Below, in pieces: positions 6,609 through 30,290 of a DNA stretch of 32,000 nucleotides. The stretch spans positions 300,001 through 332,000 of the forward strand of contig OY782392.1 of NCBI GenBank assembly GCA_963677765.1. The letters run 5' to 3'. Under the pieces are notes generated by a model. The model saw nothing but the letters and a program-made list of their open reading frames with translations, was not told the origin of the DNA and did no database searches. Numbering within the stretch: position 1 is the stretch's first letter; every line of letters begins with the position of its first letter. The translations under genes were made by a program, and so were the position numbers. This DNA comes from Candidatus Saccharimonadota bacterium. Lineage in GTDB: Bacteria > Patescibacteriota > Gracilibacteria > BD1-5 > UBA6164.

Positions 6609-6684
6609 GCCACTATAGCTCAGCTGGTAGAGCATTCGCCTTGTAAGCGAACGGTCATCGGTTCAAGTCCGATTAGTGGCTCCA
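6609..6684 (+). tRNA. tRNA-Thr (anticodon UGU)
   Basis: Hand-folded cloverleaf: acceptor gccacta/tagtggc, D stem gctc/gagc, anticodon stem ttcgc/gcgaa with loop cTTGTaa, T stem atcgg/ccgat, encoded CCA. Confidence 0.9.
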
Positions 6685-6762
6685 TCTATTATAAAATAAA
6701 GTTACGAAATACGAGTTTAAAATATTTTATCTTTGATTCGTAATTCGTATTTTTTTTAAAAT

Positions 6763-6847
6763 GGGCAGATTCCAGAGCGGCCAAATGGGGGGGACTGTAA
6801 ATCCCTTGTCTACGACTTCGGGGGTTCGAATCCCTCTCTGCCCACCA
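6763..6847 (+). tRNA. tRNA-Tyr (anticodon GUA), long variable arm
   Basis: Acceptor gggcaga/tctgccc, anticodon stem gggga/tccct with loop ctGTAaa, long variable arm, T loop ttcgaat, encoded CCA. Confidence 0.88.
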
Positions 6848-6905
6848 TGTTAAAAAAAGATTTAAAAAAAACTAGTTTTAAAAGGACTAGCATTTTTTAT
6901 GTTTA

Positions 6906-6990
6906 GCCGGGGTGATGGAATTGGTAGACATGTTGGTCTTAGAAACCAATGCTTAATCGCGTGCGAGTTCGAGTCTCGCCCTCGGCACCA
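6906..6990 (+). tRNA. tRNA-Leu (anticodon UAG), long variable arm
   Basis: Acceptor gccgggg/cctcggc (one G-U pair), anticodon stem ttggt/accaa with loop ctTAGaa, long variable arm, T loop ttcgagt, encoded CCA. Confidence 0.88.
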
Positions 6991-7052
6991 TACCAAATAT
7001 TTTTATATTTTTGTACCGTACTTGGCGGTCAAATAAAACAAACAAAAAGATT

Positions 7053-7307
7053 ATGAAAAAAGGAATACATCCAGAATCTAAAGAAGTTTTATTAGTAGAT
7101 AGAAGTGCTGATTCAGTTGTAAAAGTAAAAACTACAGCTAAAACTACTGATACTTATGAACATGAAGGTAAAGAATACCCTTGTATTTTTATAGAAACTT
7201 CTTCAGCATCTCACCCATTCTATACTGGTGAACAAAAAATCCTTAAAACTGGTGCAGTTGATAAATTCTACGCTAGAATGAAAAAATCAGAAGCATTGAA
7301 AAAATAA
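7053..7307 (+). CDS. rpmE: 50S ribosomal protein L31
   Basis: MKKGIHPESKEVLLVDRSADS...SSASHPFYTGEQKILKTGAVDKFYARMKK. The classic MKKGIHP start and HPFYTG motif are present. The track ORF from 7011 is an upstream over-extension. Confidence 0.9.
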   Translation: MKKGIHPESKEVLLVDRSADSVVKVKTTAKTTDTYEHEGKEYPCIFIETSSASHPFYTGEQKILKTGAVDKFYARMKKSEALKK

Positions 7308-7354: not shown

Positions 7355-7381
7355 TTGACTTATATTTTTTTTATATATAAT
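7355..7381 (+). promoter_or_regulatory. Putative rplJL promoter
   Basis: TTGACT at 7355-7360 and TATAAT at 7376-7381. The spacer is only 15 nt, so the exact -10 is uncertain. Confidence 0.45.
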
Positions 7382-7384
7382 CAT

Positions 7385-7518
7385 AGTACTTTCTATGTCA
7401 AAGACAGTGGGCACAAAATAAGACCTACCGAGATAATAGAGGAATAGATTTTAAATTAGATATAAAGTTTAAAAAACTCTAATCCTTTTTCTTTGACTTA
7501 AAGAAAAAGGATTTTTTA
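7385..7518 (+). promoter_or_regulatory. rplJ 5' leader with terminator-like hairpin (L10-leader-type attenuator candidate)
   Basis: About 180-nt untranslated leader. It contains ...caaagacagtgggcacaaaataagacctaccgag... and a strong hairpin aatcctttttcttt / aagaaaaaggatt (7481-7513) followed by a T-run, ending about 45 nt before the rplJ ATG. Confidence 0.55.
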
Positions 7519-7560
7519 ATACTAGAAAGTAATAGTTTATATTGATAATAAAAAACAACA

Positions 7561-8133
7561 ATGGCTGTTTCAAAACAAAAAAAAGTTGAGATATTTAACG
7601 AATTAGTTGAAAAATTCAAATCTGCTGAATCAATTGGTTTTTCATCTACAAGTGCACTTAGTGTTGAAGATTTTGCAAAACTAAGAACTTCTTTAAGAGA
7701 AGTAGGATCTACTTATACTTTAGCTAAAAAAACTATTATAGTAAAAGCTATAAAAGAAGCTAGAGATATTGAAATTAACTTATCAGACTTAGAAGGTCAA
7801 ATCTGAGTAGTATGTTCTAATGAAGATGCTGTAGCTGGTTTAGGTAAAGTTAACGATTTCATGAAAGCTATAAATAAAGATGCTGATAAAATGGAATGGG
7901 CATTATCTATATTTGAAGGAGAATTAAAAGACAAAGAAGAAACAAAAATAATTGCTTCTATGCCTTCAAGAGAAACTTTACTTGGAAGATTGGTTGGTTC
8001 TATGAAATCTCCTATTTCTGGAATGGCAAGATTCTTTGATGCTGCTGCTAAAGAACTTGAAACTACTGGAAAAGCAAAAGTTAGTGAATTAGAAGGAAAA
8101 AAAGAAGAAACTTCTGAAGAAGAAGCTAAATAA
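7561..8133 (+). CDS. rplJ: 50S ribosomal protein L10
   Basis: The two track ORFs (7561-7806 and 7861-8133) are in the same frame and are joined through a single TGA=Gly at 7804-7806. The 190-aa product has an L10-like sequence and an acidic C-terminal tail. Confidence 0.9.
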
Positions 8134-8140
8134 TTGATAT

Positions 8141-8280
8141 TTGGTTCATTGATTCCCTATTTTTAGGGAGTCATTAACTAGTTATCAATAAAATAACTAG
8201 AATAGTTCATTGTAGAGCTTGATTCAGTGTCTGTTAAGAACTGAATCTAACGGATATTGAACTAAAATTCTACAATGAAA
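8141..8280 (+). other. Structured rplJ-rplL intergenic RNA element (three nested or adjacent hairpins)
   Basis: Hairpins are gattcccta/tagggagtc (8151-8172) and ctagttat/ataactag (8178-8200). A long-range stem ttcattgtaga/tctacaatgaa (8206-8216 with 8269-8279) encloses gattcagt/actgaatc (8221-8247). Confidence 0.5.
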
Positions 8281-8320
8281 TTTTAAAAAATTTTATTTTA
8301 TATTTTTAATTTTTGCAAAA

Positions 8321-8695
8321 ATGGCTGAATTAACAAAAAATGCACAACAAATTATGGACTTAGTTAAAGAATTAACTATAGTTGAATTAAATGACTTAGT
8401 TACTGCTATGGAAGAAGAATTTGGTGTTAGTGCTGCTGCTCCTGTTATGGTTGCTGGTGCTGGTGCTGAAGGTGGAGCTGATGAAAAATCAAGCTTTAAC
8501 GTTGAATTAACTTCTGCTGGTGCTTCTAAAATCGGTGTAATTAAAGTTATAAGAGAAATAACTGGATTAGGATTAAAAGAAGCTAAAGATATTGCTGATA
8601 ACGGTGGTATGATTAAAGAAGGAGCTTCTAAAGACGAAGCTGAAGAAATTAAAGCTAAATTAGAAGAAGCTGGTGCTTCTATCGAATTAAAATAA
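8321..8695 (+). CDS. rplL: 50S ribosomal protein L7/L12
   Basis: 124 aa: ...[23 protein letters not shown]...[27 protein letters not shown]...[14 protein letters not shown]. No TGA codons. Confidence 0.95.
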
Positions 8696-8702
8696 TTCTA
8701 TT

Positions 8703-8738
8703 AAAAAAAGATAAACTTATATAAGTTTATCTTTTTTT
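8703..8738 (+). terminator. rplL intrinsic terminator
   Basis: Perfect palindrome aaagataaactta-ta-taagtttatcttt followed by a T-run. Confidence 0.8.
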
Positions 8739-13868: not shown

Positions 13869-14090
13869 AAATACCTAGTATATTTTAAATTTTATAAATA
13901 AGTAATAAAAAACGTTAATTTTTAAAACATTCCACTTCGTAAATAAAATATATAAATTTTCAAAAACTTGCCCAATCAAAGATTGGACTTCAAACAGTTT
14001 GAAAATTTATATATTTTATATTTACTTGTTACATTTAAAAATTAAATTTTTTTTATTATCTTATTTAAAAATTAAATACTAGGTATTTTT
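13866..14090. repeat. About 225-bp imperfect palindrome (long inverted repeat) between convergent genes
   Basis: The outer 15 nt, aaaaatacctagtat / atactaggtattttt, are perfectly complementary. An inner perfect 20-nt pair lies at 13945-13964 and 13998-14017. A central mini-hairpin is ccaatc-aaa-gattgg (13972-13986). The arms are about 105 nt and mostly complementary by hand alignment. Confidence 0.8.
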
Positions 14091-22966: not shown

Positions 22967-23056
22967 AATGTATTTATTTAATATATAAATTTATAGTACA
23001 AAAAAAAGCTAGAAAATCAATTATGATTAATCTTAGCTGTTATTAATAGTTAATAA

Positions 23057-23091
23057 AATTAAAATATATAAATTTATTATATATTATTTTA
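23057..23091. repeat. 35-nt AT-rich repeat, copy B (upstream of the TPM gene)
   Basis: aattaaaatatataaatttattatatattatttta. 34/35 identical to the copy at 21332-21366. On the minus strand it contains a TATAAT-like box. Confidence 0.7.
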
Positions 23092-23103
23092 AATAATAAT
23101 CAC

Positions 23104-23138
23104 AAAAAAAAACTGGATTACGGTGCAACGTAATCCAG
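23104..23138 (-). terminator. tRNA-Lys terminator
   Basis: Stem ctggattacg/cgtaatccag with a 6-nt loop, followed on the minus strand by a run of 9 T. Confidence 0.8.
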
Positions 23139-23156
23139 CTTGCTTTAAATTTCAAA

Positions 23157-23232: not shown

Positions 23233-23314
23233 ATAACTTCTAAAGCTCGTGTATTGTAGTTAAAAAAATGAGTAATGCAAATTTTTTTTTCACTTTTTTT
23301 AAATATTTTATATA

Positions 23315-23356
23315 ACTATCATATTATTGTCTATATATAGCCAATAATATGATAGT
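23315..23356 (-). terminator. Perfect 15-bp hairpin just after truB (terminator or processing signal)
   Basis: actatcatattattg (23315-23329) / caataatatgatagt (23342-23356), 12-nt loop, 5 nt downstream of the truB stop. There is no clean U-run on the minus strand. Confidence 0.4.
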
Positions 23357-23361
23357 ATTTT

Positions 23362-24992: not shown

Positions 24993-27900
24993 TTATTTAT
25001 TGTCATCTTCTGTCTTTAACCAGTCTGGTATCTTCATTCAATCATCCCATAACTCTGTTGAGTCTTGAGTTTTTTTAGTTTTAGAATCAGAAGTTTTATC
25101 TTCTTTTTTTACAGACTTTTTAGTTGTTTCTTTAGATGAAGTAGTAGATTTATTATTAGACTTAGTCTTGTCATCTTTTTCTGATTTTTCTTCTTTTTTA
25201 TCAGTAGAATTATCATCAATTGATTTATCTAAATCTTTATTATCTTTTTTATCAGATTTTTCATCTGACTTTTCAATACTTCATTTTAACCAATCTGGTA
25301 TATTATCTTCTGAAGTATCTTCTTCTTCGTCTAAATCTATTTTAGTAAGATTATCTAAATCTTCTTTTGTATCCATTTTCGGTAAAGATTCTTCTTTTTT
25401 AATAGAATCAGATTTATTATTAATAGAATCTTTTTTATCTAAATCAGAATCAGAGTTAGAATTTATTTCTTCTTTAGATTTAGAAGATCACACTTTTGTT
25501 AAATCTTTTTTATCTAAAAGGTTTTTAGATTCTTCTTTTTTATCAATTTTTATATCCTGCTTTTTAGGATTTTTTTCTTTAACAATTTCTTTTTCTGATT
25601 CTTTACTCTCAACACCTTCATCTTCATCAAAACTTCCCTTTAACCAATCTGGTATTTGGGATTTAGTTTCAGTTGAAGTAGTATTAGTAGCAGCTTTATC
25701 TAAATTAGGTTTATATGTTTCTACTTTTGTATTATCAATTTTTTTAGATTGTTCTTTATCATTATTTAAAGATATTTTTGTATCATTTTTATTATTAGAA
25801 CTATCTAGTGGTTTATTGATAACTGGATCACTTATTTTATTTTCTTTAAGATTATTTTCCTTAGGTTTAGTATCAAAACTATCATCAAATCATCATTTTA
25901 ACCAATCTGGAACATCTCAAGAATTAGTATTTTTAATATTATCCTTTGTTTCTATATTATCATCTTTTTTGTCTTGTTTATCAGTTCAAGTTAGAGGATC
26001 TTTTATATCATTATTTGATACATTTTCTTTTGGTTTATCATCATAAGAAAACGGATCAATAAATTCATCTTTTGTAGATTCATTATTAGGTGATACTTCT
26101 CATGATAAAGGATCAATATTATCTGATTTTTTTTCTTTTATAGTATCATCTCAAAGAATATCTCATAAATCAGAAATATCGTCTTTTACAGTTGAATTTC
26201 AACTAGATTTTCATCAAGTTTTTTCTGAAACAAATTCTGAAAAAGACTTATTTTTATCTTTATTAACAAGTTTATAATAAATAAAGAACAATACAATTAC
26301 AAATGTAAATAATAATATTATATAAAATATAATTTTTAATATAAACAATATTGCATCAATAACTCATGATCAACCTGTAGTTCAACCGATAACTTCATCA
26401 TTTTTAGCAACCTCTTCTTTTTCTTGTTCAGGTATATTATTAACACCTCAATATACAAATGTATTTAATATTGCCTTGAAATCATTTTTTTCTTTTACAG
26501 ACATATTTGGATCTTCAGCAACATTTCTAAGAATTTGTTTTCATAAAACTACATTTTCTTCTACATTATCATTTTCTGATATAACTTCTAATTTTGCAAC
26601 CAATAATTGATAACAAGTAACATTTTCTCACTCAACTTCTAATGATTCTTCTTCGATACAAGCTATATTAGTTGGTAACATGTTTTTTAATGCAGTTAAA
26701 GCTATTGCTTTTTCTGTTCTATCTGCTTCACCATCAACTAATAATCATTCTAATATATCTATTATTTCTGCAGAAGAAGATAATCATGACTCATCTAAAT
26801 AAGTAGAAAATTCTAAAATAACATTAGTTTTTTCTCTATTATCATTCCATGCTTCTTTTAATCTTTGAACATACATTAATCATTTTAATTTATGTTCTTT
26901 AGGAAAAGAATCTACTTTATTTTTAATTTTTTCTAATTGTAATTTTACTGAATCAGAAACTCATTCAAAAACTATAGAACTTGAATCAATCATTTCATCT
27001 TCCTCAATATATTCTTTTAATATAATTATATCTCTAGAATTTATAACTTTTCAAGATGAATCTTTAGTAAATATTCTTAATTTTTGTTCTCTAAATTCAT
27101 TTAATTCAATTTTTAAAGGATTTCATGAAAAGTAACTATTATCATTCTTGTTATCTTCATCATCATCATTTCATCAATTCAAATCACTATCAATTTCAAT
27201 ATCATAATCTACAACATAATTTTCTGCTTTATCATCAAATGCAAAATATAAGAAAACATTATCAATTTCATCTTTTAAAGTAATAATATTATCTTCTATT
27301 TCATTATTTGAAATAACTGGAAAATCTTGTTTTCTAATATTTATTATATTAGCTACATTTTTTGTAACTTTTTTTGTTATATCTCTTATTTTAGTTCATT
27401 CAGTTAATTTTAATTTAACTAAATGTACATTTTTTGCATCTTCATATGTATAAACAAAAGATCCGTTAGTAGTAATTTTATTTCAATCTCACATATCCCA
27501 TTCATACTCAGCTCAAACTCATAAACTTTTATCAAAGAATATATAAGTATTACCATAAGAGTAATAATCAAAATCTGGCTTTAGTATATTTGATACATTT
27601 ACAGTAACTGTTTTAGTGTTTGAGAATCATTTATTTGATACTTTTACTTTTGCTCTTTTTTCTCAAGAACTATTATAAGTATAAGTAGTTACATTACTTG
27701 TTGTTTCTTTATCATAAAATCAATCCCCATCAAAATCCCAAGAAAATTTTACTTTATTATTTAAATTTTGTCCTAATATATTCTCTGCATTTGCTGAAAA
27801 AGTAACTTCATCACCTATTCAAACAGATGAATTATTTACAACTAAATCTAATAAAGGTGTATTTACATTATCTCATGTAAGAGTGATAAAGTATTTTGAA

Positions 27901-30290
27901 CCTGTTATCTCTTCTGAAATAGATCTTTCTTCATTGTTGTCTTTCATTACTACAACAAAATAGTAATTTCAAGTAATTTTAGGTAAAACAAATGAAGTAG
28001 AATCAGTTTTAGTAGCTCTAAAATCTTGAGGCTCAGGGTCAACATCAGTATAGTAATACCATAAATAAGATTGTATTACACCATCTCTATCTTGAGCTCA
28101 AAGAGCACTAATATTAACAATTACTGGATCAGTTTCAGTGTCTTTTACTCTTACATCTAATCATGATAAAGTAGGTTTAATATTTTCAACTTTTATATTT
28201 ATTGTTTTTGAGTCTTCTCTTCAGTTTTTATCACTTTTTACAACTAATTTTAATTGTTCACAACCTAATTCATCAAATTTTTTATTAAAAGATTGAGAAC
28301 TATAAATAGAACGTCATAAAGTCCAAGAATATGATAATCATGAATTTTGTCATGTAATATCTAAACTTTCTTCTCAAGAAAATGTAAAATTATCTACCCT
28401 GTTAACTAAATATGCTCATTGTCATCCACATGCTCTTGGATCAAATGCAACTTCATTTCATTTAGGATCTTTCAAAGTTATATATGCATAAGGAGAGTCA
28501 GTATCTCAAATATATACATTTCTAGTTAAAGTATTTTCATTATCATTACTATCAATAACTTTTAATTTAACTCAATATACTCATGATTTTTTAAATACAT
28601 GAGAAATAGTTCAATTACTTCAACCTTCTTTTATTCAATCTCCAAAATCCCATTCATAAAATTTTGCCTCTGGAGAATCCGCAATAAATCTTATAGTCTT
28701 ATCTCTTTGCGATACTCTAGGAAAAATATTAAAATCAACGGATAAAATTGATCTAATATCTACCTTAGTATTTTTTTGGTTAACTATTCCTTCAGGATCA
28801 GTTACTTCTAATGTAACAGAATGTTCTCATATAGAATCAAAAGTATAATATCAATTAGAACCATTATAATTAGGTCTATCTAGATTTACTCTGTTTCAAT
28901 CAATTACCCAACTAAACTCTAATTTTCAATCATCAGAATAATCAGGATCATAAGATGAAGATCAATCTAAAAATACTGTATTAGGTCTATGAGAATCTGT
29001 AATACTATGGCTAAATTCAGCTACTGGAGCTCTAGAGTTTATATATATAATTTTTGTATCTATATCTACCTCTCCTGAAGGTTCAGTAACATATAGCATA
29101 ACATTATATATTCATTTTTCTGTGAAAGAATAATTAAAAGTAGAAGAAGATTTATTTAATATTTCTTCATCATTTTTTATATCAATTATTCTCCATGAAT
29201 AAGTTAAATATTCATTTCTAGAAGTAGGATTAGCAGTAAAAGTAAAAGTATCTCACATATATCCTTCATCAGAACTAGCTTTTATAGTAGCTATAGGATT
29301 ACTAACTATTAAATCAAATTCCCTTTTTACAGTTTTTCATTCATTAGTTCTAAGTTCTAGAGTTACATCAAATTCTCACTCATTAGCATATACAACTCTT
29401 TCAACTTTTGGAGCTCAATCATATGTTCTTTCAACTCAATTACCAAAATCCCAACTAGTTCTTGTAAATTTAGTTCAAGATGTAGGAGTAGAACTTGTTG
29501 CATCAAATAATAATCAATATTTTGCTTCTTCTGGTGAAAATTTTAATTCATCTCTATTTCATAGATTATCAGAATTAACTTTTACTATAACGGATGCTAC
29601 TTTTTCCTTTACAGAAACTGTAACTCTTGAAGAAAATGGTAAAACATCAGTGAATCATTGAGAATTTTTATGATTAGATGTTACATCTAAAAATACAGAA
29701 TAATTTCATTCTTCATTAAAAGTATAATTGATAGAAGACCTATTTCACAATACTTTTCTTTTTCATCAATCATTAATCCACCAAGTATAATTATAGTTTT
29801 CTAATTTTGTTCAAGTAGGATCTTCAACATTTCATCTAAGAGTAACTGTTAAAGGAGCATTTCAAGTAGAAGGAAATGATTCTATATTACCTCTGATTTT
29901 TTGTATATTAACTTTGTTTAAATAGTCCTCTATTGAACTAGATATAGTTTGAAATTGAGAAGAGTTTTCAGGATATTTTAATCCTCTTTCTATAGAACTT
30001 TTTAAAGAATTATAGTAATTTTTATTAATCAAATTATCAGGAAGATAATTAAGTCAATTTTTTGCTAACTCTAAAATCCTTGCTGAAACAACCGAGTCTA
30101 TAACTCAGTTTACTTCAAATTTATTTTTTAAATCAATATATTGATCAGTTATTCTATATCTATATTCGTTAAACGTATTTAGATCAGAAGGAGTAATTGT
30201 CGTATACTCAGTATCAGCAGCACTAACATAAGTTGGTGCTATAGCAGATATAATCAATATAAATAATGTAGTTAGTACTTTTTTAAACAT
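24993..30290 (-). CDS. Giant (1765-aa) secreted multi-PKD-domain protein with C-terminal TM anchor and K/D/E/S-rich tail bearing four PDWLK motifs
   Basis: I checked every codon of the frame from 30290 to 24993 and found no TAA or TAG. Signal peptide MFKKVLTTLFILIISAIAPTYVSA/AD. About 8-9 repeats of roughly 90 aa carry PKD signatures (APLTVTL, TSWDFGNG, YEWDFGDG, FSWDFDGDG, YEWDMGDG). These are followed by an acidic helical region, a TM helix (about 26270-26365) and a tail of about 430 aa. Confidence 0.85.

Follow-up and report, generated by a model that had tools for sequence, protein, structure and literature searches.

The spacer between rplJ (ribosomal protein L10) and rplL (ribosomal protein L7/L12, or L12) at positions 8134-8320 of a 32,000-nucleotide (nt) stretch of DNA (the window throughout) folds into a conserved structure that acts in cis within the rplJ-rplL mRNA and is specific to the Gracilibacteria and their relatives. 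Its universal core is bistable, one strand being shared by two helices that exclude each other. The element is a lineage-wide, covarying, two-state intercistronic RNA that belongs to no catalogued family. Its kind is already known, that of the structured mRNA elements tuning ribosomal protein operons, while the mechanism in this case is one that we infer from folding models. L7/L12 is the sole ribosomal protein present in four to six copies, and its gene shares an operon with that of the single-copy L10. To our knowledge, how the excess of L12 is set is known in detail for only a few model organisms.

Folding of the spacer

The original prediction for this spacer had given its length as 187 nt, which is confirmed, and had called it unusually long. 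The latter does not hold within the window, where the median intergenic region is 83 nt and five spacers exceed 187 nt, but it does hold for this pair of genes, as in Firmicutes and other phyla (40-odd loci) the rplJ-rplL spacers measure 20-134 nt, typically 35-75 nt, and are unstructured, with GGAGG at the end. The minimum free energy (MFE) of the spacer is -57.6 kcal/mol, compared to -27.6 ± 3.5 kcal/mol in 200 dinucleotide shuffles, none of which folds as well (z = -8.5), while the minus strand folds less well (z = -6.25). Among all the intergenic regions of the window, this spacer has the most extreme folding z-score (-8.8 on recomputation).

All four helices that were proposed originally exist in the sequence. 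The hairpin at 8151-8172 is the apical part of a longer hairpin, H1; the one at 8178-8200 is an alternative helix, H2; the stem formed by 8206-8216 and 8269-8279 is the base of a third structure, H3; and the local hairpin at 8221-8247 is formed by GATTCAGT and ACTGAATC. The MFE fold, however, prefers partly other, longer pairings (H1 over 8134-8188, and H3 via 8223-8236/8248-8261). The original prediction had missed that its two local hairpins represent one state of a two-state element and that H1 abuts the stop codon of rplJ. The parts of the element are as follows.

8134-8146, plus strand: strand a, TTGATA-T-TTGGTT, the 5' strand of the H1 base (MFE fold; covariance model R1, alignment A4)
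8150-8173, plus strand: apical stem-loop of H1, TGATTCCCTA / TTTT / TAGGGAGTCA, present in both conformations (covariation)
8175-8188, plus strand: strand b, TAACTAG-T-TATCAA, the 3' strand of the H1 base, shared, pairing with strand a in H1 or with strand c in H2
8178-8200, plus strand: H2, the alternative helix, CTAGTTAT (8178-8185) with ATAACTAG (8193-8200, strand c), which excludes the H1 base
8206-8279, plus strand: H3, a clade-specific long hairpin (MFE fold; alignment A5)
8280-8320, plus strand: AU-rich tail up to the rplL ATG, predicted to be unstructured (ATG-anchored tail alignment)

A scan of the window against Rfam 15 at gathering thresholds returned tRNAs only and no family in the spacer, and in permissive scans of the window and 15 relatives the spacer gave only spurious microRNA-hairpin matches, far under threshold. 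Our search of the literature brought up no account of a motif in the rplJ-rplL spacer, nor of ribosomal leaders in Gracilibacteria.

Conservation of H1

A scan of genomes with L12 and a scan of metagenomes with an alignment of L10 together gave approximately 60 Gracilibacteria-type loci. Approximately 50 related loci were compared, whose L10 is between 37% and 95% identical to that of the window and whose GC content lies between 13% and 57%. The spacer is 94-198 nt long where L10 is at least 58% identical to that of the window, and mostly 84-135 nt at 40-58% identity, the exceptions being spacers of 24-39 nt (L132, L135, L137) and one of 201 nt (L122). In more distant loci, resembling those of the candidate phyla radiation (CPR), the spacer is mostly 6-55 nt. 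Folding of every spacer led to one common plan; the short spacers of L132, L135, and L137, at similar L10 distance, carry no hairpin.

The part of this plan that is universal is H1, which follows the stop codon of rplJ. It consists, in this order, of a helix of 6 base pairs (bp; a1:b1), a 1x1 loop, a helix of 5-6 bp (a2:b2), an asymmetric internal loop, and an apical stem of 9-14 bp, about 11 bp, closed by a loop of 3-7 nt. Across 43 loci the size of H1 is held at 21.4 ± 1.4 bp (range 19-24) in 49-60 nt, regardless of GC content. Of 46 loci, 33 have H1 beginning at the very first nucleotide past the stop codon, and in 44 it begins at most 4 nt further on. In the alignment of 43 distinct sequences, 94.3% of the cells are paired, versus 29-45% when the partners are slid, and 17 of the 22 pairs have changed on both sides, with 228 compensatory cells in total. 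The apical stem has compensatory changes in 10 out of 10 pairs and 98.3% of its cells paired, and its sequence varies freely. RNAalifold independently recovered H1, including the apical stem, with 16 of 20 pairs compensated. The pairs tolerated also tell the strand: H1 has 95 G·U pairs versus 13 A·C mismatches, and H3 has 60 versus 8, indicating that the molecule under selection is the sense RNA.

The covariance model R1 has a single match in the window (8134-8199, 65 bits), in the spacer and on the sense strand; it matches the orthologous spacer in approximately 50 loci and nowhere else within those loci; and in 71 rplJL loci of other phyla it produced two marginal matches (26.9 and 29.8 bits), both outside the spacer. 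The original prediction had reasoned that structure retained in this spacer suggests function, and this inference is now supported: the covariation check in relatives is clearly positive, the helices being both conserved and covarying, and the fold is better than those of shuffled sequences. The loops and bulges of H1, on the other hand, vary in sequence, with no conserved unpaired nucleotides, which argues against a sequence-specific site for a protein or a ligand.

One locus, L091, keeps both H1 and H2 at 59 nt from the stop codon, displaced by an inserted hairpin, and this suggests that contact with the ribosome is not essential. The insert (2080-2138 of that locus), a GC-rich hairpin that is additional to the common plan (CCTCTCCTTTTGG...AAAGGAAAGGGG), separates H1 from the stop codon of rplJ and makes the locus a natural spacing mutant.

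H2 and the two states

H2 starts at a fixed column, four alignment columns past the apical stem, in essentially all loci, and it is the MFE structure of the isolated segment in 41 of 43 loci, with 5-8 bp and -3.8 to -8.3 kcal/mol. Its cells are paired in 96.7% of cases, a percentage that is partly circular, as the best complement served as the anchor of the alignment. Covariation is seen in 3 of 6 pairs; the covariation of pair types and the shuffle control are free of this circularity. The helix averages 6.0 bp and reaches at least 5 bp in 95% of the loci, while shuffled downstream sequences give 2.6 bp, with 6% reaching that length, and downstream sequences swapped between loci with differing b strands give a mean of 4.2 bp. 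The pair types switch jointly (CTAG/CTAG, CTAA/TTAG, CTAGC/GCTAG, CTAGT/ACTAG, CTAGA/TCTAG, CGAG/CTCG, GAGAT/ATCTC), and strand c covaries even with the bulged nucleotide of H1 (C-G in 24 cases, U-A in 5, A-U in 4, and G·U in 2). The same design of a:b and b:c pairing is found in GC-rich distant members (L136, at 57% GC, and L133), so that the architecture outlasts complete turnover of the sequence, from 13% to 57% GC.

The base of H1 and H2 are mutually exclusive, and in folding the intact RNA adopts H1. When the first 13 nt after the stop codon are masked, full H1 gives way, in the MFE structures of the loci inspected, to its apical stem together with H2, and this change costs 0-8 kcal/mol, with an average of about 4. 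Many of the a:b pairs are G·U, in contrast to b:c, where Watson-Crick pairs predominate. Two mutually exclusive helices, a:b and b:c, are, by these sequence comparisons, both under selection. Selection on H2, a helix that is disfavoured as long as strand a is there, implies that the RNA spends a lasting period in a state lacking this strand.

What the element may do

The reading that we favour, tentatively, from folding models and from analogy, is one of selective processing and stabilization: the spacer, resembling a substrate of ribonuclease III (RNase III), may uncouple rplL from rplJ and favor the output of L12. RNase III substrates possess two helical turns (about 20-22 bp), with internal loops that confine cleavage to one strand, leaving a protective 3' hairpin (PMC1540722). 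H1 spans approximately two turns, and both the conserved asymmetric loop below the apical stem and the 1x1 loop between a1:b1 and a2:b2 could serve to restrict the cut to one strand. This shape, along with the freely varying sequence, fits the published features of RNase III substrates and would suit a double-strand-specific nuclease. Full-length H1, with its two turns and internal loops, would have the form of a processing signal of the T7 R1.1 type. Strand a would be removed by a cut in H1, 3' in its internal loop, or, alternatively, by 5'-to-3' decay of rplJ stopping at the apical stem. Strand b would then refold with strand c, leaving an rplL message that starts with H2 as a 5'-terminal hairpin, followed in the window's clade by H3 and then by 30-40 nt of AU-rich sequence, a landing pad for ribosomes that do not use Shine-Dalgarno sequences, while the rplJ part would have a 3' end with or without the apical hairpin. 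Unequal stability of the two products would help to produce an excess of L12 over L10. For the same pair of genes in Methanolobus, processing results in a more stable and better translated rplL mRNA, and this is argued by the authors to drive the 1:4 stoichiometry (PMC5499594). The L091 locus also counts for processing, as adjacency to the stop codon may be dispensable, and so do the conditional formation and fixed start of H2 and the location of the canonical autoregulatory site upstream of rplJ.

Several points weigh against this reading. All of its mechanistic steps past the structure are ones that we infer, by modeling, for organisms that are uncultivated. The near-invariant start of H1 at the stop codon is explained more directly by a mechanism linked to the ribosome. 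H2, with its 5-8 bp, is modest as a stabilizer, and the circular component in its paired-cell percentage has been noted above. The rules for RNase III sequences are those of Escherichia coli, and their transfer to these organisms may be doubtful. A tblastn search with E. coli Rnc gave no match in the window and the related loci, which represent a small part of any genome and make this result uninformative.

The position of H1 is an argument for the main rival, in which translation itself is sensed. A ribosome terminating at the rplJ stop codon would cover and unwind strand a, upon which b would flip to c, and this transient state would time or couple the initiation at rplL, for example through keeping the post-termination subunit on the mRNA or through a change in spacer geometry. 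We consider such a switch possible but doubtful. The structure lies within the reach of a terminating ribosome, with an offset of zero in the 33 loci already mentioned, and it does so despite the varying length of the L10 C-terminus; the conformational change upon masking is what such a switch would need; and the contrast of G·U-rich a:b and Watson-Crick b:c pairs resembles energy tuning. However, translational coupling of the classical sort involves a start region that is paired in the closed state and freed in the open one, and this is not what is predicted. When the spacer and 30 nt of rplL were folded, the rplL initiation region (-20 to +13) was equally accessible in the free RNA and in that with its first 13 nt masked (0.49 vs 0.51, 41 loci), and the complementarity of strands a, b, and c to this region was not beyond that of shuffles (mean z from -0.2 to -0.3). 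On these grounds the unmasking of the rplL start site was rejected. In addition, L091 keeps the architecture at 59 nt from the stop codon, one-to-one coupling alone would give no excess of L12, and the sequence names no output for the switch.

The two ideas may also be combined, in that the ribosome at the rplJ stop codon would toggle the element between the 21-bp H1, which a double-strand-specific RNase could cut, and a protected state with two hairpins, the apical stem and H2. What happens to the rplL message would thereby depend on whether rplJ is translated. We regard this combined version, a translation-gated processing switch, as rather unlikely.

H3 and the tail before rplL

Compared to H1 and H2, H3 is of limited distribution, being confined to the window's clade (L10 identity of approximately 62% or more). 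It has a base of 12 bp (8206-8217/8268-8279), then an internal loop, and then an upper helix of 13-14 bp, in which strand x (8223-8236) pairs with strand z (8248-8261). In alignment A5 (19 loci), pairing holds in 90.1% of the cells, and both sides have changed in 10 of 25 pairs. A local alternative, x:y, pairs 8221-8228 with 8240-8247 and competes for the same 5' strand; we do not count it as established, as compensatory change supports it in a single lineage of one subtype and nowhere in the other subtype. Other lineages have unrelated hairpins in this place (L099, L100, L122, L133) or none.

The last part of the spacer is the AU-rich tail, which measures 29-42 nt past the last hairpin by our own count in the loci measured, and is predicted to be largely open. 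Its A/T motif is common even to relatives with 40-47% GC. No Shine-Dalgarno sequence was recognized in the 50 nt upstream of any of the 28 genes of the window. The tail includes a TATAAT-like hexamer, TTTAAT (8305-8310), 10 nt ahead of the rplL ATG, and a hexamer of this type is found 9-11 nt before the rplL ATG in most of the close relatives, while the distant GC-richer members are without it. About a third of the 28 window genes have TATAAT- or TATAAA-like hexamers 9-11 nt before the ATG, including rplJ (7544-7549, 3' of the terminator of its leader) and genes whose upstream region is coding. The hexamer may serve as part of a promoter, giving near-leaderless mRNAs, or may act in translation.

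Such a tail would also be expected of a passive insulator, in which H1 and H3 would lock a pairing-prone spacer and keep the rplL initiation region single-stranded, independently of the translation of rplJ, with H2 as a by-product. The genes of the window are without Shine-Dalgarno sequences and have AU-rich initiation regions, the tail is predicted to be largely open, the sequences of the apical stems are free to vary, as if only stability counts, and Firmicutes, with their strong Shine-Dalgarno sequences, have short unstructured spacers, all in agreement with such a role. The insulator, however, leaves unexplained the covariation of H2, including the nucleotide bulged in H1, as well as the narrow length of H1 and its fixed place beside the stop codon, and L132, L135, and L137 do with their short hairpin-free spacers. 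We view it as rather improbable.

The hexamer brings up another scenario, of separate transcription units, with the hairpins ending the rplJ transcript and a promoter in the AT-rich tail driving a near-leaderless rplL mRNA. An added promoter would be a simple route to more L12, and the conserved location of the hexamer in most close relatives would fit. The presence of the hexamer at the same position before rplJ and before genes with coding sequence upstream, and its absence from distant GC-richer members, are both against this scenario. Intrinsic terminators were rejected as an identity for the hairpins, as a conserved U-tract was not found after H1, H2, or H3, while the true terminators of the window have one. 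A promoter for rplL is not convincing either: a conserved -35 element was not found, the hexamer is a general upstream feature, and in the AT-rich region promoter-like matches number 28, versus 15.1 ± 3.2 in shuffles, with those on the plus strand of the spacer reaching 9/12 at most. We therefore judge separate units to be very unlikely. A candidate antisense promoter, a minus-strand match at 8237-8209 (10/12), turned out to be H3 stem sequence, lost in variants such as L003. Finally, an N-terminal extension of rplL from the in-frame TTG at 8219 was rejected, as the lengths of the spacers in relatives are not multiples of three; together with the evolution through compensatory pairs, this indicates that the region is not coding.

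The clade-specific distribution of H3, and the unrelated hairpins occupying its place in other lineages, suggest repeated insertion, and so a selfish palindromic insertion (similar to miniature inverted-repeat transposable elements, MITE, or repetitive extragenic palindromic elements, REP), or an independent small RNA gene residing in the spacer, should be considered. A dispersed repeat was rejected, as a repeat search, the covariance model, and blastn all gave no other copy: no H1 or H3 was found outside the orthologous spacer in the 32-kb window and in related loci totalling approximately 680 kb. The element keeps a strictly orthologous position, it is strand-specific, and the signals of a promoter and a terminator were not found, which also disfavours the embedded small RNA listed in the original prediction. 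Both versions appear extremely unlikely.

Of the functions suggested in the original prediction, a processing site and a translational insulator are still viable candidates. Of these possibilities, it is processing and stabilization that we continue to favor, tentatively as before, and the setting of the genes is described next.

The operon and its surroundings

The window has a GC content of 23%, and its open reading frames (ORFs) are unbroken only with TGA as a sense codon, conserved glycine motifs falling at the positions of TGA; for example, the P-loop of MiaA, GPTASGKT, is legible only if TGA encodes glycine. The L7/L12 protein of the window is 91% identical to that of a metagenome-assembled genome (MAG) of Candidatus Gracilibacteria (genome scan with L12). 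Use of TGA as a glycine codon and the proximity of L7/L12 to Gracilibacteria MAGs together identify this as a Gracilibacteria genome with genetic code 25. The rplJ and rplL genes form a stand-alone bicistronic unit, which neither rplKA nor rpoBC adjoins in the window, indicating that the usual order, rplKAJL-rpoBC, has been broken up in this lineage.

7380-7526, plus strand: L10 leader-like element (RF00557, 35.6 bits, gathering score 44), context, outside the spacer element
7481-7513, plus strand: stem of the intrinsic terminator of the L10 leader, followed by a T-run (terminator scan)
7561-8133, plus strand: rplJ, ribosomal protein L10 (ORFs and translation; Pfam PF00466, Ribosomal_L10, E = 5e-17), with an in-frame TGA (7804-7806) translated as glycine and the stop codon TAA (8131-8133)
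8321-8695, plus strand: rplL, ribosomal protein L7/L12 (Pfam PF00542, Ribosomal_L12, and PF16320, L12_N)
8703-8738, plus strand: terminator hairpin with U-run, closing the bicistronic unit (folding energy -14 kcal/mol, z = -5.0)

The C-terminus of L10 (approximately 8060-8130 of rplJ, and the orthologues) is of low complexity, rich in E, K, A, and P, and highly variable in length. Among relatives the L10 protein ranges from 186 to approximately 230 amino acids (aa), yet its stop codon stays flush with H1.

The element at 7380-7526 is the canonical L10(L12)n autoregulatory site. Matches to RF00557 are also present upstream of rplJ in relatives (L121, 48.8 bits; L123, 44.8; L096, 42.7; L003, 36.9), and those above threshold, in L121 and L123, suggest, by sequence, that the Firmicutes-type attenuator exists in Gracilibacteria. 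RF00557 is absent from 8134-8320 in the Rfam scan, and an L10 autoregulatory site was thus rejected as an identity of the spacer.

These observations bear on the question of a protein operator, a structure in the spacer that would bind L10(L12)n, free L12, or another ribosomal protein in a feedback on rplL translation. Many ribosomal protein operons carry mRNA mimics of this sort. The element is also lineage-specific, as such regulators often are (PMC3616713). A protein-binding autoregulatory site, one of the functions suggested in the original prediction, is nevertheless disfavoured: the recognized L10 leader is already in place upstream of rplJ, the loops, the bulges, and the apical stem sequence are unconserved, without any constant unpaired nucleotides, the sequence of the helix bases turns over completely in the distant members, and the spacer has no match to an Rfam family. 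An operator in the spacer is, in our estimate, quite unlikely.

A number of other features were noted in the window and in the related loci. Upstream of rplJL is a tRNA cluster (Thr, Tyr, Leu, then rpmE; 6609-7307), and in seven relatives (L001, L002, L003, L005, L006, L081, L084) two or three tRNA genes are found in the same place. In L091, a stretch upstream of rplJ (698-1174) has a sub-threshold match to transfer-messenger RNA (tmRNA; RF00023, 21.6 bits vs 47, E = 1e-4). The region between convergent genes at 13869-14078 folds with z = -8.1, near the value for the rplJ-rplL spacer, and holds 43-nt inverted repeats; it is probably a bidirectional terminator. The spacers flanking tRNA-Lys (22967-23156 and 23233-23361) are markedly structured (z = -6.1 and -4.3). 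On the minus strand, 24993-30290 is an ORF of 1765 aa with a signal-peptide-like N-terminus and internal repeats (repeat family D7).

Significance

Overall, an uncultivated lineage with a recoded genome and no use of Shine-Dalgarno sequences has kept a two-state RNA device exactly between rplJ and rplL, and its design is compact, three strands and one constant hairpin. This presents a well-supported candidate RNA family for a region of the tree with almost no characterized regulatory RNAs. If either the processing or the termination-sensing reading is true, the element would show that subunit ratios can be set inside an operon without tuning through Shine-Dalgarno sequences. If the translation-gated version is true, it would be a natural device that reads the occupancy of a stop codon by ribosomes and writes it into mRNA processing.

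Comparison with known systems

In shape, the nearest system is that of the RNase III signals of the R1.1 type in the early mRNA of phage T7, which are likewise intercistronic hairpins of approximately 50-60 nt, of about two turns, with an internal loop. We know of no alternative partner for R1.1, while the 3' strand of H1 has a conserved one, strand c. Recognition is by shape and not by loop sequence, and a cut in one strand leaves a protective 3' hairpin (PMC1540722), as proposed for H1; in the present case, cleavage is predicted from shape alone, and the host is a CPR bacterium, not a phage. The L10 leader, RF00557, is part of the same operon and is also a structured mRNA element controlling rplJL, but it is located upstream of rplJ, binds L10(L12)n, and ends in a terminator.

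In E. coli, the rplJ-rplL spacer is short, and the rplL initiation region, in work attributed to Petersen in 1989, is said to be held in a long-range structure that is opened by ribosomes translating rplJ. As in that system, an mRNA structure would here link the translation of rplJ to the expression of rplL, with the difference that no pairing with the rplL start region is predicted.

Selective processing within operons has other examples, including cggR-gapA of Bacillus subtilis (PMC5499594). In 5' stabilizers of this type, endonucleolytic cleavage within the operon provides the message of the downstream gene, which is the more abundant one, with a hairpin at its very 5' end, similar to what is proposed for rplL, although H2 would arise only through refolding after the release of its strand from H1. 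The closest parallel in terms of genes is the rplJ-rplL processing of Methanolobus psychrophilus. This is an archaeon, its processed leaders are short (39 and 24 nt), and the mechanism is one of unmasking the ribosome binding site (PMC5499594), which is not predicted for the spacer described here, nor is there any homology in sequence or structure between the two. The pair of genes is, however, the same, and so is the proposed purpose: in M. psychrophilus, intergenic cleavage produces a monocistronic rplL mRNA with a longer half-life and approximately 2-fold better translation (PMC5499594).

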